DNA from: a virus
Length of the DNA: 58,642 bases
Direction: 5' to 3' (one strand)
Virus genome (UHGV): UHGV-0101169
In this document: in pieces, positions 15,517-35,469 of the stretch
Numbering within the stretch: the first letter of the stretch is position 1
Layout of the letters: every line of letters starts with the position of its first letter
Notes under the pieces: generated by a model
Database searches by the model: none
Seen by the model: the letters and a program-made list of their open reading frames with translations, nothing else
What the model was told of the DNA's origin: nothing
Program-made: the position numbers and the translations under genes

Positions 15517-16151
15517 TATGACTGCCTCCATTCATCTATAAGATTTCTATCTGTATGGGTTTCAGGCTGCTTCCGTGTTCTCTCCCATGTCCTAACAGCA
15601 GCTTTCCAGTCTTTCATCTTGTTTTTGCCTATCATCCAGCCTTTAGAACTGTAAAAATTTACAAAAGATTGAGCATCAATTCCATTTTGCCTTTGCTCAC
15701 AGTAAGCCTGGACCTCATCCGCTGTTGGTGGAATAAAAATCTGTCTTTTTGGTTCAGGCTTTTTCTCTGCGTTAGGTGGTTCATCTGGTGGTTCGTTAGG
15801 TGGTTCACTCAGATTTTCGGTAACCTGAAATTTATTGTAATTTACTACGTTTATCAGCGTTCCTCTGTTGGTTCGCTCCGTGGTCACCATTTGTTCATCC
15901 TCCAACAGTTTAAGGAATCGTTTAACTTTATTTCTGGACCATGACCAACGGGCACTTAGCTTCTCTATGCTGAACATATAGGAGCCTTTTGGAACTATGG
16001 TAGTCTTGCCGTCTATCAACATTTTTACATCCTTATGAGAAGCTGAAAGCAATATATCTATCCAAGCTGATCTTCTATCAAACGCCTCCCTACTGTTCCA
16101 AATAGAACAGTCAAATATTTGTCTATGTAGCTTTATCCAGCCTTTTTCCAT
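15516..16151 (-). CDS. phage replisome organizer (DnaD-like N-terminal domain)
   Basis: MEKGWIKLHRQIFDCSIWNS...SRNKVKRFLKLLEDEQMV, plus the C-terminal motif FVNFYSSKGWMIGKNKMKDWKAAVRTW. Confidence 0.6.
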   Translation of the reverse strand: MEKGWIKLHRQIFDCSIWNSREAFDRRSAWIDILLSASHKDVKMLIDGKTTIVPKGSYMFSIEKLSARWSWSRNKVKRFLKLLEDEQMVTTERTNRGTLINVVNYNKFQVTENLSEPPNEPPDEPPNAEKKPEPKRQIFIPPTADEVQAYCEQRQNGIDAQSFVNFYSSKGWMIGKNKMKDWKAAVRTWERTRKQPETHTDRNLIDEWRQS

Positions 16152-23004: not shown

Positions 23005-23613
23005 TTATTCCTCTGATTCAAAGATTGAAGAAGAAAAGATGCAAAATGGACGAATACCGATGCCGTTACGGTAGAAGTCGTAGTAGATACAGCCAGCAGA
23101 AGAAACAACGGAAACTGCACCAGAACAACCATTGCATGGTGTACTCCATGGGCTAATTAACCACCACCATTTATTCGCGTTAGGAATATACTTCCTATAT
23201 TTTCTGTACTCATCCACTGTCAGAAGCGACACTTTATCAGTGCATGATCCGTATTCTGTCTGACCGTCAAGAGAAAGAAGGTTTCTTTCAAAACCTAATA
23301 CATTTCCTTCCCCTATTTCTTCTTCCAACTTTTCTAAAAACTCTTTGTTCAGATAGCTTCTCAGCTTACTTGTGGTCCAATTGTTATCATCAGAGTCAAA
23401 CTTTTTATTCCCAATAGATTCTGCTAGGCACATATATCCCGTATCTGTAATATCCATAATTTTCCATGTTGTTCCGGCAAGCTGAAATTCATCTCCGATT
23501 GAAAGTCCGATCGGTAACTTATTCATATTTTTAGAATTATTACCTTTTAATGCATTTATTTCTTTCTTCAACACATCGATCTGATCCTGAAGCGCTTTCA
23601 TTGTTAATGCCAT
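23005..23613 (-). CDS. DUF6273-like protein (WWW...PWST...GIRPFCI C-terminal domain), paralog A
   Basis: N-terminal coiled coil. C-terminus NKWWWLISPWSTP...VSVVSSAG...GIGIRPFCIF. Confidence 0.45.
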   Translation of the reverse strand: MALTMKALQDQIDVLKKEINALKGNNSKNMNKLPIGLSIGDEFQLAGTTWKIMDITDTGYMCLAESIGNKKFDSDDNNWTTSKLRSYLNKEFLEKLEEEIGEGNVLGFERNLLSLDGQTEYGSCTDKVSLLTVDEYRKYRKYIPNANKWWWLISPWSTPCNGCSGAVSVVSSAGCIYYDFYRNGIGIRPFCIFSSSIFESEE

Positions 23614-23615
23614 GA

Positions 23616-24221
23616 CTATTCTCCCTTCGATACAAAGATATGAGATTTCAAGATACAGAATGGACGAACACCGCTGCAGTTATTGCAGATGCCGTTGCAG
23701 AAATAGCCAGAAGAAGAAACAACGGCAATTGAGTAGTCACAACCACGCTCTCTGGTGCTCCATGGGGTGCATGTCCACCACCAGTCATTCAGATTCTTAT
23801 TGACAAGAAAGCCGTTAAATTCCCTTGCCTCATCAAAGGTAATGGGTCTTACCTTGCACATGCAATTTTCAAATTCATGTTGCATATCTATTGATGTCAA
23901 GTTTGCAGTATGCTCAATCAGATTTTCTGCGCCCACAGCCTTTTCAATAATGGGCTGGATATCAGCTTCAATCATCTTCTTTATGTTAGATTTGTTGTAA
24001 TCTTTTGTATTTCTGTCAAACATAACATTTTCTGCCATAAAGCCTTTTGAAATAACTTTTGTTGTCTGACTAGAATCATCTTGACACAGCACGATAAAAT
24101 CATACTTATCGATCTTAAATGTTTCCCCTGGCTTTAGTTCTGACAGCCTTACTTTGTTCTTTTTCTCTGCTTCTTCCAGCTGTTTAACCAGCTCTCTCGC
24201 CATATCTAATGCTTTGCTCAT
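23616..24221 (-). CDS. DUF6273-like protein, paralog B
   Basis: C-terminus NDWWWTCTPWSTR...IAVVSSSG...GVRPFCIL. Adjacent to paralog A. Confidence 0.45.
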   Translation of the reverse strand: MSKALDMARELVKQLEEAEKKNKVRLSELKPGETFKIDKYDFIVLCQDDSSQTTKVISKGFMAENVMFDRNTKDYNKSNIKKMIEADIQPIIEKAVGAENLIEHTANLTSIDMQHEFENCMCKVRPITFDEAREFNGFLVNKNLNDWWWTCTPWSTRERGCDYSIAVVSSSGYFCNGICNNCSGVRPFCILKSHIFVSKGE

Positions 24222-24239
24222 TTTCGTTCTCCTCCTTCA

Positions 24240-24401
24240 CTAAATCGCATTGAATGTCTGGATTGCAAACAGCTCATTTACGGTCTTTTTAAATACTTCA
24301 CCGTCAACCTTCACGCTGTACATAAATCCGTCATTTTCAAGGGTTACTCTGCACTGCCTTTTCCCTGTCCAAATTTTCTTTTCTTTTTCGATAACCAGCA
24401 T
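24240..24401 (-). CDS. small hypothetical protein (53 aa)
   Basis: Not in the track. SD GGAGGGATAAAAATG. Confidence 0.4.
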   Translation of the reverse strand: MLVIEKEKKIWTGKRQCRVTLENDGFMYSVKVDGEVFKKTVNELFAIQTFNAI

Positions 24402-24403
24402 TT

Positions 24404-26320
24404 TTATCCCTCCACTTTTAATTTTTCATTATCGTTTACAACTAGCATAATCAACTGACCGATAACCATGTCAGAAACCTTTTTCTGGTTTTCAGAGTCC
24501 AGTGATTCACAGTCATCCACCCAGATAGGAACTGATATTCCGGCAATATCCTGTACGCTCTGGCAAATATCAACTCTACCCAGGATCCGGTTTCCCTTGT
24601 TGCTGATCGTTGTAAGAATAGATTTACCATCAACCATAGGAATACAGGTTGACTTATAATTTCCATTCTTTGCAGTTTCAAATAACTGCCACTGGACTAA
24701 TTTGAATTTCTGGTTAATCTGGTTTGAAAACTCCTCATTCTTAGCTTTTTCTAATTCAGTAAGCAGATAGAGGACTTTTTCTGCATCTGCCTGCTGCTGC
24801 ACCATGTCAGTTCTCTGCTGTTTCAACTCTGCCAGACGTTTTTCTTCGATTTCCGTATTTGACATGAGGATTTTTGATTCGCAATCAGAAAGTTCTTCTC
24901 TTAGCTCCTGTTCATCTTCCTTAAGTACCTTTCGGTACTCAGAAATATTTTCCATACTCTTAAGAGCATTTTCTTTTTCGGTAATCTGCTGATTAATTTC
25001 CTGGTATTCACTTGTATCAGATATATCAAGCTTTTTCGGAAGTTTTGAAAGCTTATCTTCTAATTCTTTAATCTCGGAAAAAACTGCATTATACTCAGCT
25101 TTTCGCTCTTTCATATCTAACCGAAACTGGTCTAAATCTTTTGTTTTCCTATCCAACTGGTCTTTGGTATTGTTTCCGTCTGTTGTGATTGAAGCAAGCA
25201 GCTCTGCCTTTTCCTTTTCAAAATTGGTAAAAAGCTCTTCCTTCTTCTCTTCTGGATAAAGTTGCTTGCAGTACGGGCAAATGAGAGACTTTTCGTCAAA
25301 CTTTCTCTCATTCTCCTCTTTCCACTCTATACGAATACCTTCCAGTTTTCCTTTTAACCGATCAATAGCATCTGTAGCCGCAGAAATTTTGGTTTCGATA
25401 GCATTTATATCTGCCTGTAATTTGTCACGCTCCAATTTCTTTTGTATGGAAATATCCAATAATTTAGACCTTTCTTCCACCAGTGACTCATTTGCTTTTC
25501 TTTCAAGCCCAGACAGTTCCATTTTCAGTTCTAAAATACCGTCAGTCAGCTCATTGTAATTCTTATAAAGTTTTTCACTTTCAAGCTGCTTTTCAGCGTT
25601 TTCTTGAATTTTCTTCTTAAGGTAATTTTTCTGAATTTCCAAATCAGATACGTCCATATCAGTCTTTGCCTTTATGTCCGCTTCCTTTTCCCTAATCTGT
25701 CCCTCTAATATAGGAAGCTCTTTTTTAATATCAGCTACTTTTTTCTTATTCATAGCTGATAATTCCTCTGCTGAATATTTTTCAAGCAGCGCTTCCAGTT
25801 CTGCCAGATCTGGATATTTATCTGCTACGGACGTATCTGGAATATCTTTTACGGTCTGGAACAAAAACTTGCGAACCTCATCTGATTTCTGATTAAGAAA
25901 TGTGTTGATATTGCTCGACATCTTAAAAGCATTATCAATTTCCAAATACTCATTAAACGCCGTTTTTGTCTTCGGAACATCATTAATAAAATATTTGTTA
26001 TCGTCCTTATATGAACTACCGTCTTTGCTATAAGTACGCTTCTGCACCTTGCAAACCGCAATCTTTCTTCCGTCTATATCCAGAACCATAGTTACTTCAA
26101 CATCACCTTCTACCGGTGATCCGTTCACTTCACGTCTCACGACTGGATTACTTCTCATTTCGTAATCACAGTCAAACAGGCACCATGTATATGCACTTGC
26201 TATGCTGGACTTGCCCTTTCCATTTGCTCCAGAAATCACGGTCTTATCATGGAAATCAAAACCCTGTTCTTCATAGCACATGAAATTTTTAAGGTGCATG
26301 CTTAAGAGTTTAATTCTCAT
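24404..26320 (-). CDS. SbcC/Rad50-like SMC-family ATPase with zinc hook
   Basis: N-terminal Walker A GANGKGKSS, long coiled coil with central CPYC hook, C-terminal Walker B/D-loop PIWVDDCESLD. Confidence 0.7.
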   Translation of the reverse strand: MRIKLLSMHLKNFMCYEEQGFDFHDKTVISGANGKGKSSIASAYTWCLFDCDYEMRSNPVVRREVNGSPVEGDVEVTMVLDIDGRKIAVCKVQKRTYSKDGSSYKDDNKYFINDVPKTKTAFNEYLEIDNAFKMSSNINTFLNQKSDEVRKFLFQTVKDIPDTSVADKYPDLAELEALLEKYSAEELSAMNKKKVADIKKELPILEGQIREKEADIKAKTDMDVSDLEIQKNYLKKKIQENAEKQLESEKLYKNYNELTDGILELKMELSGLERKANESLVEERSKLLDISIQKKLERDKLQADINAIETKISAATDAIDRLKGKLEGIRIEWKEENERKFDEKSLICPYCKQLYPEEKKEELFTNFEKEKAELLASITTDGNNTKDQLDRKTKDLDQFRLDMKERKAEYNAVFSEIKELEDKLSKLPKKLDISDTSEYQEINQQITEKENALKSMENISEYRKVLKEDEQELREELSDCESKILMSNTEIEEKRLAELKQQRTDMVQQQADAEKVLYLLTELEKAKNEEFSNQINQKFKLVQWQLFETAKNGNYKSTCIPMVDGKSILTTISNKGNRILGRVDICQSVQDIAGISVPIWVDDCESLDSENQKKVSDMVIGQLIMLVVNDNEKLKVEG

Positions 26321-26495
26321 TCGTCTTTACCGCCTTTCTTTCAACTCCCAGAATAGCCCTCACGACTTCATCTGAGATATAACCGCAGGTTTCAAAAACT
26401 TCTTTAAGGACATTAAGCCTAGCTTGTTTATCTACTAATACTTCATACTCAGATTTAGTAAGCAGAACGATTCTGCTATTTTTATTTTCATCCAT
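26310..26495 (-). CDS. hypothetical protein (61 aa)
   Basis: ORF only. Confidence 0.35.
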   Translation of the reverse strand: MDENKNSRIVLLTKSEYEVLVDKQARLNVLKEVFETCGYISDEVVRAILGVERKAVKTNEN

Positions 26496-26500
26496 CCAAC

Positions 26501-26686
26501 TTATCTCCTCGCTCTTTTAAATTTGTCCACGATTTTTCTCTTATTCGTGGTCTTGTTACTGAGTTTCAAATAAAACTCAGTTTCTTCTACCAGCATCCAT
26601 TCCCCAGCATTTAAATGAGCTGCCGAAACAGCTTCTTTTTGCGACCGGTTTAGCTTCTTCGGCTGCTTCATTTTCTGCTTCTCCAA
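26501..26686 (-). CDS. hypothetical basic protein (61 aa)
   Basis: ORF only. Confidence 0.35.
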   Translation of the reverse strand: MEKQKMKQPKKLNRSQKEAVSAAHLNAGEWMLVEETEFYLKLSNKTTNKRKIVDKFKRARR

Positions 26687-26783
26687 GCTACATAGAATAA
26701 AAAACCTAAAACCACTGCAACTTCAGTCACAAGTGTGGTTAAAACTCCGGCCCAAAATTGGTCAATATACATTGCGCATCCTC

Positions 26784-26993
26784 CTATCTTGTTACCAACC
26801 ACAGTGCCAATGCTGCTCCAACCATCATCAGCCCTGCTACTACAATCACTGTATCCGCAACCTTCCAAAAGATTTCTTTCCAGTGTTTTTTTTCAGTCTT
26901 AATTGCCACGTAGCTTACACCAAGCGGGCAATCATGATTTTTCATCTTTGCCATTTTTCCAATACCTTTCTTGTGGTATAATCTCCTTATCAT
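26784..26993 (-). CDS. small membrane protein (one TM)
   Basis: Hydrophobic C-terminal helix. Divergent from the 27015 gene. Confidence 0.35.
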   Translation of the reverse strand: MIRRLYHKKGIGKMAKMKNHDCPLGVSYVAIKTEKKHWKEIFWKVADTVIVVAGLMMVGAALALWLVTR

Positions 26994-27014
26994 TTAACAA
27001 GGAGGTGAATTAAA
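26974..27014 (+). promoter_or_regulatory. conserved promoter/operator/SD module copy 1 (TGgTATAAT-CTCCTT-N10-AAGGAGGTGA)
   Basis: The 34-nt string ggtataatctccttatcatttaacaaggaggtga is identical at 28945-28978. Confidence 0.6.
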
Positions 27015-27242
27015 ATGTTTATTAAAATCAGAATTTCTTGCCCTTGCCATTGCTCATATATCGTGAATGAGAATATCAATTCCGACAAAGTTGTTTGCCC
27101 CAACTGTGGAAGTGAATATCCTTACTCCGAAAAATTAGCATCTATGCTCAGATTGGCAAAAGAGATACCTGAAGGTGAATGTCTTTCAGAACATTCCGTT
27201 CAGGTTATTTCTCTTTCGGAAGATATGAACAGCCGTCAATAA
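27015..27242 (+). CDS. small zinc-ribbon protein (75 aa)
   Basis: CPCHC...CPNCG. Strong SD. Confidence 0.55.
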   Translation: MFIKIRISCPCHCSYIVNENINSDKVVCPNCGSEYPYSEKLASMLRLAKEIPEGECLSEHSVQVISLSEDMNSRQ

Positions 27243-27426
27243 CTAACTTCATATATTCCAGAAACCCTTTAGCAACCGTAGCGGTCAGATTATTTTCAGC
27301 AATTAGCATTTTTACATTCTTTTCTAATTCTGATGCTTGCTGACCGTTACATTGCCGGTAATAGGAATAATGTTTTCCTTCATACGTCTTTTCAAGTTCA
27401 TCTGCTGTTAATGCATATGGAGACAT
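27205..27426 (-). CDS. hypothetical protein (73 aa)
   Basis: ORF only. Confidence 0.4.
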   Translation of the reverse strand: MSPYALTADELEKTYEGKHYSYYRQCNGQQASELEKNVKMLIAENNLTATVAKGFLEYMKLVIDGCSYLPKEK

Positions 27427-27668
27427 ATTTTTTCACCCTCTTTCTACTTCAACGCTAAAAACAAAACGGTCAATATACCTGCAATAAAACCTAATGCAGT
27501 AACAATGTTATTGTCATTCTTCATATGTATTCAATTTTTCCTTTCCTATGCTGTTTTCTCCGCATCCAGTATTTTCTTTCTGATTGTGTCAACGCCTTTC
27601 TGGTACACCATCTGGCTGTTGCCGCAGCCCTAAACAATGTTCCATACTTCAAAATCTCAACAAATAAT

Positions 27669-27944
27669 TCACTGGCTCTCTGTAGCAAGAGATCCGATTT
27701 TATACTCTTGCCCATTTTTGAATCTGATGCTTTCAATCTCTCCAACATCATCCTGATTAACATTCAGCAGCCACAGGTCTGTTGTGATGTCAAATGCATT
27801 CAAATCAATCGTTAATGTCGGAATTCCCGCACCTTTTTGCTTCAATTCGTAACTTCTGATACCACTAATTTTATGACCGTCAATCAGAATTTCTGTGAAT
27901 ATTCCTTCTTGTCCATCAACCTGTCTAATTTCAATTTTTGCCAT
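27669..27944 (-). CDS. hypothetical protein (91 aa)
   Basis: SD GAGAGGG. Confidence 0.5.
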   Translation of the reverse strand: MAKIEIRQVDGQEGIFTEILIDGHKISGIRSYELKQKGAGIPTLTIDLNAFDITTDLWLLNVNQDDVGEIESIRFKNGQEYKIGSLATESQ

Positions 27945-27946
27945 TT

Positions 27947-28099
27947 TTACCCTCTCTCCGCTTCTTCATCTTCCTCATTTTTCCGACTGCACTCAGCCAT
28001 ACTCTCAACCTTTCCAAGAATATATCCCTTGTCAAAGTCAGACATTTTAGGAATGGCATCTCTCAGCTTTTCCACAACCTGTTTTTCTTTCTCACTCAT
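27947..28099 (-). CDS. small acidic protein (50 aa)
   Basis: Not in the track. SD GGTGAAGTTAATG. Confidence 0.35.
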   Translation of the reverse strand: MSEKEKQVVEKLRDAIPKMSDFDKGYILGKVESMAECSRKNEEDEEAERG

Positions 28100-28115
28100 T
28101 AACTTCACCGCCTAT

Positions 28116-28931
28116 CTACGCACAATACTTAACTTCATACTCCTGGACGATTTTGGAGTAAATCTCACGAAGTTTCTTGTCATGTTCAATTACATCAATC
28201 TTTTTGATGTCAATCTGTTTCTTAGTTCCGCCAGCGTTTTCAATTCTCTGCTTCATGTTTCTGACACGTTTACCCAAATCGGCGCCAGCCCTACGTTCAA
28301 GTTCCTTATGCATTTCAGCCTGTAACTCTGCATAACCAATATTTGCTTTGAGAGCAATCTTTACTATTTTTGCCCTGATCTCCACACGCCAGTTATCCAT
28401 AATTGGTTTAACAGCTTCTTTGATATTCTCCGTAGTCTCAACAGCTTTCCGCGCTGTTTCATTCGCAAGAGCTATCTTCCGGTCGCGTTCCTTATCTTCC
28501 AGCTCTTTATTTGCAATGCTCTGCGCTAATTGCAAAATGAGTTGTGTCTGTGGAGATAAGTCCTCTGTGGCAAGTTTCCTTGCTTTAAAGTAGCCATTTA
28601 CAAGCTGTCTCTGAACTGTCCACGCCAAATCGTCCGTAAACGACTTGACTAACATCAAATAACCTTGTTCTGTCAGAAGAACCACTTCATTGTTTGGATT
28701 TCCGCCTTTTGAGTTAGGTACGAAATTCGTACAGAACTCTGAATACGGTATTATAAAGTAATCTTCATCTTTTATAAAATGTTCTCTATTTACATTGAAA
28801 TTTCTTTTTGCCGTTCCCTCAGGTCTTTCATGGACCATATCAATATCTTTCAATGTAATCACTCTTTGATTTCGATATTCTTTTACTGAAATATCTGAAT
28901 TTCTGATACGTATTAGCTCATTCATTTTCAT
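28116..28931 (-). CDS. ORF6N-domain antirepressor-like protein
   Basis: VKEYRNQRVITLKDIDMVHERPEGTAKRNFNVNREHFIKDEDYFII fits ORF6N. Confidence 0.6.
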   Translation of the reverse strand: MKMNELIRIRNSDISVKEYRNQRVITLKDIDMVHERPEGTAKRNFNVNREHFIKDEDYFIIPYSEFCTNFVPNSKGGNPNNEVVLLTEQGYLMLVKSFTDDLAWTVQRQLVNGYFKARKLATEDLSPQTQLILQLAQSIANKELEDKERDRKIALANETARKAVETTENIKEAVKPIMDNWRVEIRAKIVKIALKANIGYAELQAEMHKELERRAGADLGKRVRNMKQRIENAGGTKKQIDIKKIDVIEHDKKLREIYSKIVQEYEVKYCA

Positions 28932-28944
28932 TCACCCTCTTTCA

Positions 28945-28984
28945 TGGTATAATCTCCTTATCATTTAACAAGGAGGTGACAAAG
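28945..28984 (+). promoter_or_regulatory. conserved promoter/operator/SD module copy 2
   Basis: Identical 34-mer to copy 1. Extended -10 TGgTATAAT at 28945-28953. Confidence 0.6.
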
Positions 28985-29164
28985 ATGAAATTATTGCCAG
29001 ATATAGGTTATCCACAAACAGGAGAAAAAGCAGAAGCCGGTACTTATGTTTGCATGACTTGCTCTCATTCAGACACAACCGAAAATTCTACTATCAATCT
29101 TTTAAAGCCTAGCAAGCTTCCAGATTGCCCCGTTTGTGGTTGTACCTATTGGATGAAAATCTAA
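28985..29164 (+). CDS. small zinc-ribbon protein (59 aa)
   Basis: CMTC...CPVCGC. The ATG lies 8 nt after AAGGAGG. The track uses an upstream GTG. Confidence 0.55.
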   Translation: MKLLPDIGYPQTGEKAEAGTYVCMTCSHSDTTENSTINLLKPSKLPDCPVCGCTYWMKI

Positions 29165-29181
29165 TTCATCCTATGCAAGTG

Positions 29182-29349
29182 TCAGTCGTTAAGACTGGCA
29201 CTTACTTTCAATATTCTCTCGACATTGCACAGTGCGTTCAGCGCCATTACTTCAATGCCAAGTCTTTCATCTGGCTTTTGTTCACGGTTTCTTACTGCTT
29301 CAATATCTTCCATAATGTAATTTGAAAGTTTTTTAATGTGTTCCTGCAT
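29182..29349 (-). CDS. small hypothetical protein (55 aa) divergent from the XRE gene
   Basis: Not in the track. Strong SD GGAGGTGAGAATATG. Confidence 0.45.
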   Translation of the reverse strand: MQEHIKKLSNYIMEDIEAVRNREQKPDERLGIEVMALNALCNVERILKVSASLND

Positions 29350-29365
29350 ATTCTCACCTCCTCGA

Positions 29366-29448
29366 TTGACTTTGTGAGTTTAATATATCACATCGAGAGT
29401 TATAATGCAATACTAAATATTGACTTTGTGAGTTTTTTTTGATATATT
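29366..29448 (+). promoter_or_regulatory. two direct 16-bp repeats TTGACTTTGTGAGTTT; the second forms a TTGACT-17-TATATT promoter for the XRE gene
   Basis: Repeats at 29366-29381 and 29420-29435. TATAAT at 29400-29405 between them. Confidence 0.5.
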
Positions 29449-29471
29449 TATTTTGAAAGGAGGACTCAAAA

Positions 29472-29834
29472 ATGAAAGATCGTATAAAAGAAGTAAGAAA
29501 ATCTACCGGAATGACTCAAGTTGAGTTTGGTGAAAAACTTGGAGTAAAAGGAAACACTGTTACAAATTATGAAACTGGTCAAAGAACCCCTACAGACGCA
29601 GTTATACGTTCTATTTGCAGAGAATTTCATGTAAACGAAGAATGGCTCAGATATGGAACCGGAGAAATGTTTCCACCGAAAACCAAAGACGAATTGATTT
29701 CTGATATGATAGGAGAAATTCAAAGGTCTGGTGAAGACAATTTTAAGCACAGGCTTGTATCGGCGCTTTCAAAGCTAAGTAAGTCTGATTGGGAAGCATT
29801 AGAAAGATTAATTGATTCTATTGCAAAAAAGTAA
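29472..29834 (+). CDS. XRE-family HTH transcriptional regulator (CI/Cro-like)
   Basis: TGMTQVEFGEKLGVKGNTVTNYETGQRTP is a canonical HTH_3. Confidence 0.75.
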   Translation: MKDRIKEVRKSTGMTQVEFGEKLGVKGNTVTNYETGQRTPTDAVIRSICREFHVNEEWLRYGTGEMFPPKTKDELISDMIGEIQRSGEDNFKHRLVSALSKLSKSDWEALERLIDSIAKK

Positions 29835-29841
29835 AAGAAAA

Positions 29842-29876
29842 GTCAAGGGACATGCGCAATCCCTTGACTTTTTTTC
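29842..29876. terminator. bidirectional intrinsic terminator GTCAAGGGA-loop-TCCCTTGAC-T8
   Basis: Perfect 9-bp stem. A-run before and T-run after. Confidence 0.75.
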
Positions 29877-29877
29877 T

Positions 29878-30141
29878 TTATCCTATAAGTTTTTTTACAT
29901 ACGCATAAATAGTTTTTAGCCAATGTAAATTTTCACACTGAGTAATTAATGTTATAATTTTTTCCTTATAATATTCTTTCTCCTCCACTAAAAGTCCCTC
30001 CAATTCATCCAATTCACACGTCCTTGTAGCGATAATCGTATTATAGAACATATGTTCGATTATGTCAAGATAGCATCGGGGACACCGATACAAAATCAAT
30101 GTCCCCAAACCAGAAGTTGATTGCCCATTTTCATTGGACAT
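29878..30141 (-). CDS. hypothetical protein (87 aa)
   Basis: ORF only. Confidence 0.4.
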   Translation of the reverse strand: MSNENGQSTSGLGTLILYRCPRCYLDIIEHMFYNTIIATRTCELDELEGLLVEEKEYYKEKIITLITQCENLHWLKTIYAYVKKLIG

Positions 30142-30194
30142 TTCTAGTATATGCTTTTAGTGGGTAAAATATTCTTACGAGCAACGAAAAACTT

Positions 30195-30335
30195 TTATGA
30201 TTCTTCTGTTTCTTCTGCAAGTTCTCCGCAATCCAGATCAATTAAAACCTGTTTTACCTGTGGCTTAATCTTTTCTGGTACCTGTGCGTAAGTCTTTCTA
30301 CCTTTGATAATAAGAGTTGCATAAATAATTGCCAT
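30195..30335 (-). CDS. tiny phage protein (46 aa), paralog of 30376..30489
   Basis: MAIIYATLIIKGRKTYAQVPEKIKPQVKQVL. SD AAGGAGGTAAGCGATATG. Confidence 0.45.
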   Translation of the reverse strand: MAIIYATLIIKGRKTYAQVPEKIKPQVKQVLIDLDCGELAEETEES

Positions 30336-30375
30336 ATCGCTTACCTCCTTTCGTAGTATTAAGAAAAGCAATAGC

Positions 30376-30489
30376 CTAAGCATCTAACAAAGCCTCGACC
30401 TCTGCTCTAATCTTCTCTGGAACATCATCAATTGTTTTTTTGCCCTTGCGGATTAAGTCCGCGTATACTGTTGCCATGTAGCTTGCCAT
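30376..30489 (-). CDS. tiny phage protein (37 aa), paralog
   Basis: Not in the track. MASYMATVYADLIRKGKKTIDDVPEKIRAEVEALL. SD GGAGG. Confidence 0.4.
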   Translation of the reverse strand: MASYMATVYADLIRKGKKTIDDVPEKIRAEVEALLDA

Positions 30490-30491
30490 GA

Positions 30492-30857
30492 TTAAGCCTC
30501 CTTTGTGGTTGTAGTGGTTTGGGTTGCTTCATAAAGTTCAGTCAATGCTAACTGGGTGTTAGTGACTTCATCTTCCAGTGCCAGATTAGCTTCATACTGC
30601 TCGGTAAGAGCTAACTGGGCTTCGGTGAGCTGGTTTTCCAGTTCTGTTACTCTAATCTGTAGTTTTCCAATATCTGATTCCGGCAGATAAGAAAACACTG
30701 CTTTAGGCTCATCTGGATTAGTTACGTCAATTTTTTCAAGAGCTGCTCCGTCTGGAATGTCCACGAACATTGACAACAGACCTTGTGGGGCTTGTTCTTC
30801 CCCATACACAATTGACCAGATTCTACCTGTGGCATCGTAAATTACTAATGCTTTCAT
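30492..30857 (-). CDS. tail fibre-associated hypothetical protein
   Basis: ORF. C-terminal coiled-coil repeats. Confidence 0.45.
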   Translation of the reverse strand: MKALVIYDATGRIWSIVYGEEQAPQGLLSMFVDIPDGAALEKIDVTNPDEPKAVFSYLPESDIGKLQIRVTELENQLTEAQLALTEQYEANLALEDEVTNTQLALTELYEATQTTTTTKEA

Positions 30858-30974
30858 TTGTTCTGTTCCTTTCTTGATTGTGATATACTGTTAATATCTT
30901 TTTACTTTTCTACAATTTTCTGCATCACCCCCATATGCCGGTAATCCACATTGGTATGTGATTGCAGGATATTA

Positions 30975-31631
30975 TTAATAGTATCCTGTAACGTAGTAAT
31001 TGTACTTCTTATTTGGGGTTGTAACTTTTACTTTAAAAGTCGTTCCGCTTCGAATTGGAGAAACCAATGTATAATTGGGCAATATTACACTTAAATTAGC
31101 CGGATCCCAAGGGCAAGAAGTAGATAAGTCATGTGGGCCATTTTCCGCCATAAACATCCAACTTTGAATATAAAAACCAAGAGATAATGTTACATAATAG
31201 TCACTGCCAGAGGTTACTTGCCCAATACGAGATACAAATTTTCTCACATTACCTGAAACTCCGAATATCGACTTCCCATAAAGTATATTATTGCCAGTTA
31301 GATTCCCATCACCTTTGATAACAATATTACCGGTCATTTTCTTACCACTACATGATACTGTCTGCTGAGCTGCCTTAGGCGTATAAGTTCCACCGCCCAT
31401 CGTACCCATGGTGCCGGTCTGCTTGCTTTTGGGATTGGTGGTATAGAAAGTTTTGCCTGATAACACATCACCGGCTCCAGCATCGCCACTGAGGGTTAGT
31501 GTACCAGTTAAAGGCTCTCCATCTGCGCCAACAATTACCTTTCCAGACAAAACATCGTCCGCTGCGGCTGATACAACATCGAGGTCAATTCCACCACTGC
31601 CACCAATCATTAATACCTGTCCCATGGTCAT
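30975..31631 (-). CDS. Gly-rich tail fibre-like protein
   Basis: Repeated DVLSGK(T/V) and G-rich beta-like repeats. In the tail region. Confidence 0.45.
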   Translation of the reverse strand: MTMGQVLMIGGSGGIDLDVVSAAADDVLSGKVIVGADGEPLTGTLTLSGDAGAGDVLSGKTFYTTNPKSKQTGTMGTMGGGTYTPKAAQQTVSCSGKKMTGNIVIKGDGNLTGNNILYGKSIFGVSGNVRKFVSRIGQVTSGSDYYVTLSLGFYIQSWMFMAENGPHDLSTSCPWDPANLSVILPNYTLVSPIRSGTTFKVKVTTPNKKYNYYVTGYY

Positions 31632-35371: not shown

Positions 35372-35387
35372 TTTTGTGGTCCGCCTG

Positions 35388-35469
35388 GTAGTTCAAGTGG
35401 TGGTTCAACAGGTAGTCCGTTAGGTGGTTCAATAGGTAGTTCATCTGGTGGTTCGTTGGTTGGTTCAAT
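35388..35469. repeat. iteron cluster R' (four ~22-bp units, inverted relative to cluster R at 3798-3940)
   Basis: Reverse-complement units tgaaccaaccaacgaaccacc, tgaaccaccagatgaactacc, tgaaccacctaacggactacc and tgaaccaccacttgaactacc. Confidence 0.6.

Follow-up and report, generated by a model that had tools for sequence, protein, structure and literature searches.

A candidate promoter module carrying the complement of its own Shine-Dalgarno sequence at the head of small antisense genes in gut phages

INTRODUCTION

Why should one and the same stretch of promoter, palindrome and Shine-Dalgarno (SD) sequence occur twice in a phage genome, each time in front of a small zinc-ribbon gene unrelated to the other? 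This question is raised by the virus genome UHGV-0101169, of which the 58,642 nucleotides analyzed here are called the window. The original prediction regarded the duplication as a sign that the two genes are co-regulated, and the palindrome as either a protein operator or an anti-SD hairpin. Comparison with related gut-phage loci indicates otherwise for the first point: the repeat is one instance of a generic module, which heads at least 10 unrelated small-protein families in the loci fetched. As for the second, the arm that follows the -10 element varies together with the SD to which it is complementary, as expected of a nucleic-acid hairpin. What the arm is kept for is a further question. 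We tentatively place first the reading, suggested by folding calculations, that it serves mainly as an SD decoy or insulator on the mRNA of the surrounding minus-strand operon.

THE DUPLICATED MODULE

The 34-mer noted at first, GGTATAATCTCCTTATCATTTAACAAGGAGGTGA, has two exact occurrences in the window, both on the plus strand, at 26975-27008 and 28946-28979. The original prediction was right about the exact copies, but its coordinates (26971-27004 and 28945-28978) were off by 4 and 1 nt. Identity of the copies reaches one base (T) further 5′ to give a 35-mer, tGGTATAATCTCCTTATCATTTAACAAGGAGGTGA. In 100 dinucleotide-preserving shuffles the 34-mer was never matched, even with 3 mismatches permitted. 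Over 44 nt (26965-27008 against 28936-28979) the two regions are 91% identical, and we attribute the extra similarity 5′ of the 35-mer to the complement of the SDs of two divergent genes. The 58.6-kb window contains no further copy of the module, even a degenerate one, and a near-identity search of 26000-30000 against deposited phage genomes gave no match. The parts of the two copies and the genes that they head, called cargo hereafter, are as follows.

26974-27008, plus strand: module copy 1, 35-nt exact repeat
26974-26982, plus strand: extended -10 TGgTATAAT of copy 1, with a TGTG -16 motif from 26972 and a weak -35
26983-26988, plus strand: left arm CTCCTT of copy 1, occupying the discriminator, -6 to -1
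26989 (A, 7th nt past the -10), plus strand: transcription start of copy 1, predicted from geometry
26999-27008, plus strand: SD AAGGAGGTGA of copy 1, whose initial 6 nt (AAGGAG, 26999-27004) are the right arm
26983-27004 (copy 1) and 28954-28975 (copy 2), plus strand: palindrome CTCCTT-N10-AAGGAG
28945-28979, plus strand: module copy 2, 35-nt exact repeat
28945-28953, 28954-28959, 28960 and 28970-28979, plus strand: extended -10, left arm, predicted start and SD of copy 2
27015-27242, plus strand: ZnR1 (cargo 1), 75-aa Cys4 zinc-ribbon protein, Cys4 conserved in homologues
28985-29164, plus strand: ZnR2 (cargo 2), 59-aa DUF1451-type zinc-ribbon protein

The sequence of both copies agrees with the parsing proposed at first, namely extended -10, palindrome and right arm as SD, as well as with the overlap between the palindrome and the predicted start. 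Both copies of TGgTATAAT contain TATAAT with TG at -15/-14. Extended -10 promoters of Firmicutes have a TRTG -16 motif; this region reads TGTG in copy 1 and CATG in copy 2. The distance from the SD AAGGAGGTGA to ATG is 6 nt in copy 1 and 5 nt in copy 2. Pairing of CTCCTT with AAGGAG makes an inverted repeat with the SD in its 3′ arm. The left arm thus has two faces, an anti-SD on the plus strand and an SD-like AAGGAG on the minus strand, and the minus-strand complement of the cassette SD, UCACCUCCUU, resembles the 3′ end of 16S rRNA.

The module was also considered as an intrinsic terminator, which was rejected: a terminator scan did not flag either copy. On the plus strand the stem runs into GUGAAUUAAAAUG or GUGACAAAGAUG, and on the minus strand into AUUAUACCA. 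A search of 24000-31000 against Rfam 15 (E<=1) found nothing relevant to the modules; the single match, to HOTTIP_2, a model of a eukaryotic long non-coding RNA, scored 12.9 bits where the gathering score is 80, is remote from the modules and is spurious.

A COMMON HEAD FOR UNRELATED SMALL GENES

Is the module a private feature of the two zinc-ribbon genes? Modules in the related loci (denoted by L numbers) share one layout: TGnTATAAT, 5-9 nt complementary to the gene's own SD, a loop of 4-16 nt, the SD and a start codon. When viral contigs were scanned for TATAATCTCCTT-N10-AAGGAGG, 40 of them matched, and in these the module heads at least 6 unrelated small proteins. Homologues of ZnR1 were found by protein homology in 203 viral contigs, 80 of which were fetched; these loci were picked by protein, not by module, and all ZnR1 homologues in them share the module architecture with differing sequences. 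A census blind to the hairpin, which required TGnTATAAT, an SD-like motif, a start codon and an open reading frame (ORF) of at least 40 aa, gave 75 unique modules (71 unique leaders on recount) with about 12 cargo families, and bases after the -10 pair with the SD in about 60 of the 75. A stricter detector produced 170 matches in 1.03 Mb, as against 3 in reversed-sequence controls. TGnTATAAT is invariant across 22 diverse modules, and in the alignment of 22 module types nothing is conserved but the -10, the SD and the SD complement.

Related modules and cargo are also present in genomes of Lachnospira intestinalis and Firmicutes CAG:882, strain CLA-AA-H89B of L. intestinalis carrying a related prophage (L142), and Eubacteriales KG125 has two identical modules with different cargo. 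Modules often follow one another on the same strand at intervals of about 500 bp, without an intervening terminator, and L083 and L089 have the same upstream flank attached to different cargo. The signature of TGnTATAAT plus the reverse complement of the downstream SD finds moron-like small genes in uncultured Lachnospiraceae-type gut phages, accessory genes of a class that annotation pipelines handle poorly.

Two observations were made alongside. Several contigs of Nitrospirota metagenome-assembled genomes (L122, L124-L127, L135-L137 and L139) have an IS21-like transposase gene at their ends, and the leader of this gene, TTGACC-17-TATAAT-CTCCTTyC-N5-GGGAAGGAGG, repeats the split SD/anti-SD design in a mobile element of an unrelated kind. 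In L044 (1987-2411) and L083 (1033-1460), the module and an antirepressor gene are separated by about 430 nt of conserved sequence without a convincing ORF, which may hold a promoter or a non-coding RNA.

WHY THE TWO COPIES ARE IDENTICAL

Two modules in one relative genome usually differ. Why, then, are the two in the window identical? A search of other phages, which the original prediction had proposed, was informative here. The window type, the rare TTTAAC variant, heads the ZnR1 cassette in L001, L002 and L019, which have no ZnR2, and the same 35-nt variant heads the ZnR2 cassette in L145, L146, L150 and L152, which have no ZnR1; L144, like the window genome, carries both cassettes. L002 lacks orf55, the neighbor of ZnR2, as well, and cassettes are present or absent among syntenic relatives as morons are. 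Distant ZnR2 homologues (L013 and L018, 54% identity) carry another variant, TTTCAT.

Since either cassette occurs alone in relatives with the same 35-nt variant, the window combines two separately circulating cassettes. The 35-mer thus appears to be a population-level variant of the module, copied between cassette heads by short-patch recombination or conversion. Because one variant is shared by separate cassettes, the identity of the copies is not evidence of a dedicated co-regulator, and the idea that the duplication implies co-regulation of two zinc-ribbon proteins is not supported, on two counts: the module heads many unrelated families, and the cassettes occur singly. More generally, exact repeats within a genome should be read with caution as co-regulation by a dedicated factor.

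THE ARM FOLLOWS THE SD

Is the palindrome recognized as DNA by a protein, or does it act by base pairing? The arm matches the gene's own SD in all loci collected by ZnR1 homology, in the following combinations.

Arm CTCCTT(AT): SD region (AT)AAGGAG
Arms CCTCTT and TCTCTT: SD region AAGAGG
Arm TCCTCT: SD region AGAGG(A)
Arm TTCCTTATT: SD region AATAAGGAG
Arm TCCTTA: SD region TAAGGA
Arm CCTTT: SD region AAAGG
Arm TTCAC: SD region GTGAA

In one common type the arm lies upstream of the -10 (CTCCnTCTGAA - TGGTATAATGTG - TTCAGAAAGGAG). Co-variation was judged by class, in a contingency table, and by folding each sequence, not column by column. Among the unique leaders, CTCCTT goes with AAGGAG in 30 and the CCTCTT type with AAGAGG in 17, and cross-combinations number 0. 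Many single genomes have 2-3 modules with differing arm pairs, such as L003 at 2866 and 3406. Because the arm tracks the SD, the loop varies in length and arm pairs differ within one genome, a nucleic-acid hairpin is favored over a sequence-specific operator. Base pairing would predict this pattern; a single sequence-specific DNA-binding protein would not. Of the two functions first suggested for the palindrome, it is the hairpin that the comparison favors.

An operator would require that a dimeric regulator of phage or host bind CTCCTT-N10-AAGGAG, from -10 to +16, and repress both promoters jointly. The palindrome does cover promoter and start, the classical position of a repressor site; its copies are identical here, as are the two in KG125; and several helix-turn-helix (HTH) and ORF6N proteins are encoded nearby. 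However, even within one genome the arms change from module to module along with the SD, spacers can be as short as 4 nt or as long as 16 nt, and one type has its left arm on the other side of the -10, so that the modules have neither a conserved half-site nor a fixed spacing; what is conserved is the -10, the SD and its complement. The half-site centers, 16 bp apart, would face opposite sides of the helix. The likely operators in the switch region are of another kind: two exact direct repeats of ACTCACAAAGTCAAT between orf55 and the XRE repressor gene, probably the operators of that repressor, are unrelated to the palindrome and absent from the modules. We regard joint repression through the palindrome as improbable.

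Could the inverted repeat instead be maintained without any selected pairing function, by template switching and short-patch recombination? Correction of quasi-palindromes by template switching is an established mutational process. The module moves as a unit, with the same 35-mer on two different cassettes in different genomes and the same flank before different cargo, and an arm and an SD about 20 nt apart would be co-inherited. Yet at least 6-8 arm/SD combinations in two geometries obey one rule, arms are retained while loops diverge freely, the detector is enriched 170 to 3, and the arm is missing precisely from promoters of the same type outside the operon. We give this explanation, too, a small chance.

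TRANSCRIPTION START AND THE PLUS-STRAND HAIRPIN

In the geometry of sigma-70/sigma-A promoters, TATAAT occupies -12 to -7, and the start is expected at about the 7th base past the -10. With the left arm at -6 to -1, the 7th nucleotide is A in 12 of the 13 modules examined, and the start is predicted between the arms, at 26989 and 28960. As this start falls past the left arm, the gene's own mRNA would lack the anti-SD and leave the SD free; by geometry the promoter is inside the hairpin, and its transcript would be without the 5′ arm. In the window copies the predicted probability of the SD being unpaired is 0.01-0.04 in a plus-strand RNA spanning the module, as against 0.32-0.50 in RNA from its own start; means over 102 modules, which are not phylogenetically independent, are 0.07 and 0.50.

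Does the hairpin then serve only to gate plus-strand translation, in the manner of T4 gene e, I-TevI and IS10, such that transcripts reading in from outside are untranslated and those from the module's own promoter are translated? The geometry is identical to that of the documented cases, with the promoter in the 5′ arm or loop and the start between the arms, and the difference in SD accessibility just described is what such gating would need. Tandem modules on the same strand with no terminator between them make read-through plausible. The arm is also retained in places with no abutting divergent gene, the IS21-like element of Nitrospirota has the same design, and the L067 variant has a G.U-rich hairpin specific to the plus strand.

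What would be gated in this genome is less apparent, since there is hardly any other plus-strand transcription. The only candidate source of same-strand read-in for the window is module 1 into module 2, between which there is no terminator-like site, and as every such upstream promoter belongs to a sister module of like type, apparently constitutive, blocking read-through has no obvious benefit. In silico, removal of the arm from plus-strand read-through RNA raises SD accessibility from 0.07 to 0.17, or from 0.08 to 0.14 where a divergent gene abuts, and for the window copies it changes from 0.03 to 0.01 and from 0.08 to 0.08. The arm is largely redundant on this strand, since the cassette SD is masked in any case by the complement of the divergent SD. 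The hairpin of the window copies is, moreover, weaker on the plus strand than on the minus strand. We rank plus-strand gating as the sole function second, and consider it rather unlikely.

A POSSIBLE DECOY IN THE OPERON mRNA

The window is essentially one whole metagenomic phage contig (ENA ERZ1745031 NODE_232, 58,697 bp), and nearly all its genes are on the minus strand. The genes and sites that bear on the modules are as follows.

26784-26954, minus strand: 56-aa membrane-anchored protein with a C-terminal hydrophobic helix, divergent from ZnR1
28116-28925, minus strand: ORF6N-domain (antirepressor-type) gene, Pfam E=5e-18, divergent from ZnR2
29182-29349, minus strand: orf55, which opens the minus-strand early operon and is convergent with ZnR2
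29365-29433, minus strand: switch region, early promoter TTGCAT-17-TATATT between the two ACTCACAAAGTCAAT repeats
29472-29834, plus strand: XRE/cI-type repressor gene, facing the early promoter

From the early minus-strand promoter, at about 29380-29407, the operon runs through orf55, the ORF6N gene, several small genes, an AAA ATPase gene and a RecT-like gene (a label from our own reading of its sequence). ZnR1 and ZnR2 are the only plus-strand genes within it, so the operon mRNA must cross them in antisense, and the early promoter is the candidate source of a minus-strand transcript spanning both modules. The modules lie back-to-back with the membrane-protein and ORF6N genes, as the original prediction had it and gene calls and the Pfam match bear out: the start and SD of the 56-aa gene fall within the -35/spacer region of module 1, and the SD GAGGGTGA and start of the ORF6N gene are just upstream of the -10 of module 2.

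How would a gene with a near-consensus SD live in the antisense orientation within an operon? We propose the following. In a group of gut Firmicutes phages, small genes inserted backwards in the early operon share a portable cassette head. Its promoter is of the sigma-A extended -10 type (TGnTATAAT) and lacks a useful -35. The six discriminator bases, which would not be transcribed from this promoter, are the reverse complement of the gene's own SD; a short A/T-rich loop would hold the start, with the near-consensus SD AAGGAGGTGA and the start codon behind it. A short-leader mRNA from the cassette's own promoter would contain the SD arm only and would be translated, whereas in any RNA covering the whole module both arms could pair. 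The abundant RNA of that kind would be the early-operon mRNA, which reads through the antisense gene and would carry the 16S-like UCACCUCCUU 35-50 nt upstream of the SD of the next cistron. The left arm would trap the 16S-like CACCUCCUU in a tight local hairpin, thereby keeping the SD of the next operon gene free, and the same pairing would mask the cassette SD in any plus-strand read-through RNA. Lying in the untranscribed discriminator, the arm would never touch the mRNA of the antisense gene itself. The repeat, its architecture and spread, the co-variation of arm and SD and the confinement of armed modules to operon-embedded genes are observed and the folding effects calculated, whereas the transcription start, the RNA that counts and the selective benefit are inferred.

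Folding calculations on the minus-strand mRNA are consistent with such a decoy. When the arm is destroyed in silico, accessibility of the next gene's SD drops from 0.48 to 0.17-0.26 (n=76, Wilcoxon p<1e-8), individual drops often being about 0.8 to 0.0, as in L007 and L021, with the freed 16S-like CACCUCCUU pairing with that SD. Promoters of the same TGnTATAAT type before XRE repressor genes of relatives and before 130-aa membrane-protein genes have no arm, and these genes are outside the minus-strand operon where mapped (L044); in the window, the candidate promoter of the repressor gene is TTGACT-17-TATATT with TG. The window variant ACAAGGAG, replacing ATAAGGAG, makes the hairpin weaker on the plus strand (-8.1 kcal/mol, z -1.6 and -1.2), and on the minus strand it gives 9 bp via G.U pairs with a 4-nt loop (-10.7 kcal/mol, z -3.6 and -3.0). 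The hairpin had been thought relevant only if transcription started further upstream; as it is predicted to form in the opposite-strand operon mRNA, this restriction can be dropped.

Several points weigh against the decoy. For the window copies its effect is negligible in silico (0.50 to 0.33-0.49 and 0.26 to 0.25), because the SDs of the divergent genes are weaker or offset. The arm is kept in places without a minus-strand gene start within 150-430 nt (L044:2412, L083:1461, L089 and KG125 L123), and an armless promoter heads at least one embedded gene (L145/L146). Hairpin energy has no overall strand bias (means of -6.42 on the plus and -6.30 on the minus strand; 36 against 29), and the plus-strand-specific hairpin of L067 counts on this side as well. 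RNAalifold predicted no consensus pairs when 22 module types were aligned by MAFFT with the SD as anchor, because leaders of the CTCCTT and CCTCTT classes pair in registers that are 1 nt apart. Independent arm/SD combinations are perhaps 6-8 and have been spread by recombination, and the modules behind the arm-removal means (n=76 and n=102) are phylogenetically non-independent. By our own reading, single substitutions informative about G.U asymmetry are split roughly evenly: the window type, L069b and L015 favor the minus strand, and TTCCTT, TCTCTT, inner A-to-G changes and L067 the plus strand. On balance, we still lean toward the decoy on the operon mRNA as the main reason for keeping the arm, with a confidence short of even.

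The armless gene of L145 (2523-2570) and L146 (2521-2570) is an embedded plus-strand gene of 60-109 aa with the promoter TGGTATAAT; its SD, CCGGAGGA, is poorly complementary to the SD of the divergent gene, AAGAAGGTG. A minus-strand promoter inside the module, which would exclude the 16S mimic from the operon mRNA, was considered as well and rejected because only TATACC/TATAAC with a 14-nt spacer is present.

Might the left arm be a working SD of the minus strand, either a standby site or the SD of a mini-ORF coupled to the divergent gene? In copy 2 only, the minus strand reads AAGGAG-N8 followed by a five-codon mini-ORF, ATG AAA GAG GGT GAA TGA (28927-28950), whose stop is 2 nt ahead of the likely start of the ORF6N gene at 28925; translational coupling of the two is possible there. 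In copy 1 and nearly all other modules, however, there is no start codon at this place, because the -10 and -16 motifs dictate what follows the arm (ATTATAnCAyA), and the arm is predicted to be paired in minus-strand RNA. As a general account of the arm this is very improbable.

If the decoy exists, antisense insertion of a gene costs the operon a 16S mimic in its mRNA, for which the arm would be an evolved fix, and the principle would be relevant to the design of synthetic operons. It is a further step, which we consider conceivable but doubtful, that the arm is a compensatory insulator allowing a gene with a consensus SD to live antisense in an operon, that such insulators make up an undescribed class of cis-elements and that they reflect a general rule of Firmicutes operons.

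CARGO GENES AND THEIR SURROUNDINGS

Judged from their homologues, ZnR1 and ZnR2 are real, conserved small zinc-ribbon proteins. As first noted, they are unrelated to each other, with nothing in common but the CPxCG knuckle. ZnR2 matches Pfam DUF1451 marginally (27.5 bits, cut-off 26.1). Apart from that match, Pfam and PHROGs for ZnR1 and PHROGs for both proteins gave generic zinc-ribbon noise only, and sequence searches of the PDB with the cargo proteins gave only weak similarities to TFIIB/L32-type zinc ribbons. ZnR1 also has a convergent neighbor:

27205-27426, minus strand: 73-aa gene, overlapping the 3′ end of ZnR1 by 38 nt

This pairing is present in L044 and L083 too, the overlap with the convergent 73-84-aa gene (...GFLEYMK...) being 38-41 nt (27205-27242 in the window, 3194-3231 in L044 and 3191-3231 in L083). 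Likewise, orf55 adjoins ZnR2 in L013 and L018. With ZnR1 and its overlapping partner on the one hand and ZnR2 and orf55 on the other, the cargo looks like convergent gene pairs, and a functional or antisense link may exist between cargo and partner. The convergent ZnR2 and orf55 are separated by a strong hairpin, AAGTGTCAGTCgttaaGACTGGCACTT (29177-29203), which has a poor U tract on both strands and may be a bidirectional attenuator or an RNA-stability element; no comparable hairpin follows ZnR1.

Other features of the window were seen in passing. Beyond the repressor gene, a perfect TTGACA-17-TATAAT promoter on the minus strand (30068-30040) has a strong bidirectional terminator (29872-29838) about 165 nt downstream, and is faced by a plus-strand promoter-like TGTTATAAT at 29950-29958 (region 29930-29958). 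These facing promoters (29838-30141) would yield convergent overlapping transcripts across an ORF of about 34 aa with a GTG near 29990, which sits inside a nominal 87-aa ORF; the unit could be a pair of small regulatory RNA and peptide, or similar to a type I toxin-antitoxin system. Tandem paralogous genes of 201 and 202 aa occupy 23005-24221 on the minus strand, their 3′ ends being 74% identical over 113 nt. Minus-strand genes also contain a GGT-rich repeat array with a 12-nt period (35373-35467 and 15773-15807).

COMPARISON WITH KNOWN SYSTEMS

Which part of this arrangement is new? In T4 gene e and I-TevI, an inverted repeat covers the ribosome-binding site (RBS) and contains an internal promoter, and longer transcripts are translationally silent (PMC3014915). 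The present module is similar in that the 3′ arm covers the RBS and transcripts from the promoter are predicted to start inside the structure, without the 5′ arm. It differs in several respects. In T4, early or middle promoters of the same strand supply the read-through RNA, and control is temporal because a gp55 late promoter is the internal one; the phage module studied here has a host-type extended -10 instead. The cassette, unlike the T4 genes, is antisense to the surrounding operon, so that sources of same-strand read-through are scarce, and the structure is predicted to form, often better, in the opposite-strand mRNA. It is also a portable head common to many cargo genes. The logic of starting inside a hairpin, used by T4 late genes and insertion sequence (IS) elements, would thus extend to host-type promoters of temperate Firmicutes phages.

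In IS10, the promoter and start are reportedly placed inside a fold-back hairpin, an arrangement ascribed to Davis, Simons and Kleckner in 1985. Fold-back inhibition protects the transposase genes of IS10 and IS50 from outside transcription. IS200 has a stem sequestering the SD (PMC4513863). As in IS10 and IS200, an upstream complement would occlude the SD or start in incoming transcripts, and the element's own promoter starts downstream of it. Unlike IS10, IS50 and IS200, the phage modules head cargo that is not a transposase, with no linked transposition machinery and no terminal inverted repeats, and they abut divergent genes of an operon.

Phage morons are independent promoter-gene units between operon genes, for example in lambdoid and HK97-like phages. 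Like morons, the cassettes combine a small accessory gene with a strong promoter of its own, lie within a conserved operon and are carried by some close relatives but not by others. Classical morons, however, are usually co-oriented with the operon or have their own terminator, whereas here the orientation is consistently opposite to that of the operon, convergent genes overlap at the 3′ ends, ZnR1 has no clear terminator behind it and the unit includes a conserved anti-SD arm. A promoter inside an SD-sequestering hairpin is therefore known; what is unusual is its use as a portable head for accessory genes embedded antisense in an operon.

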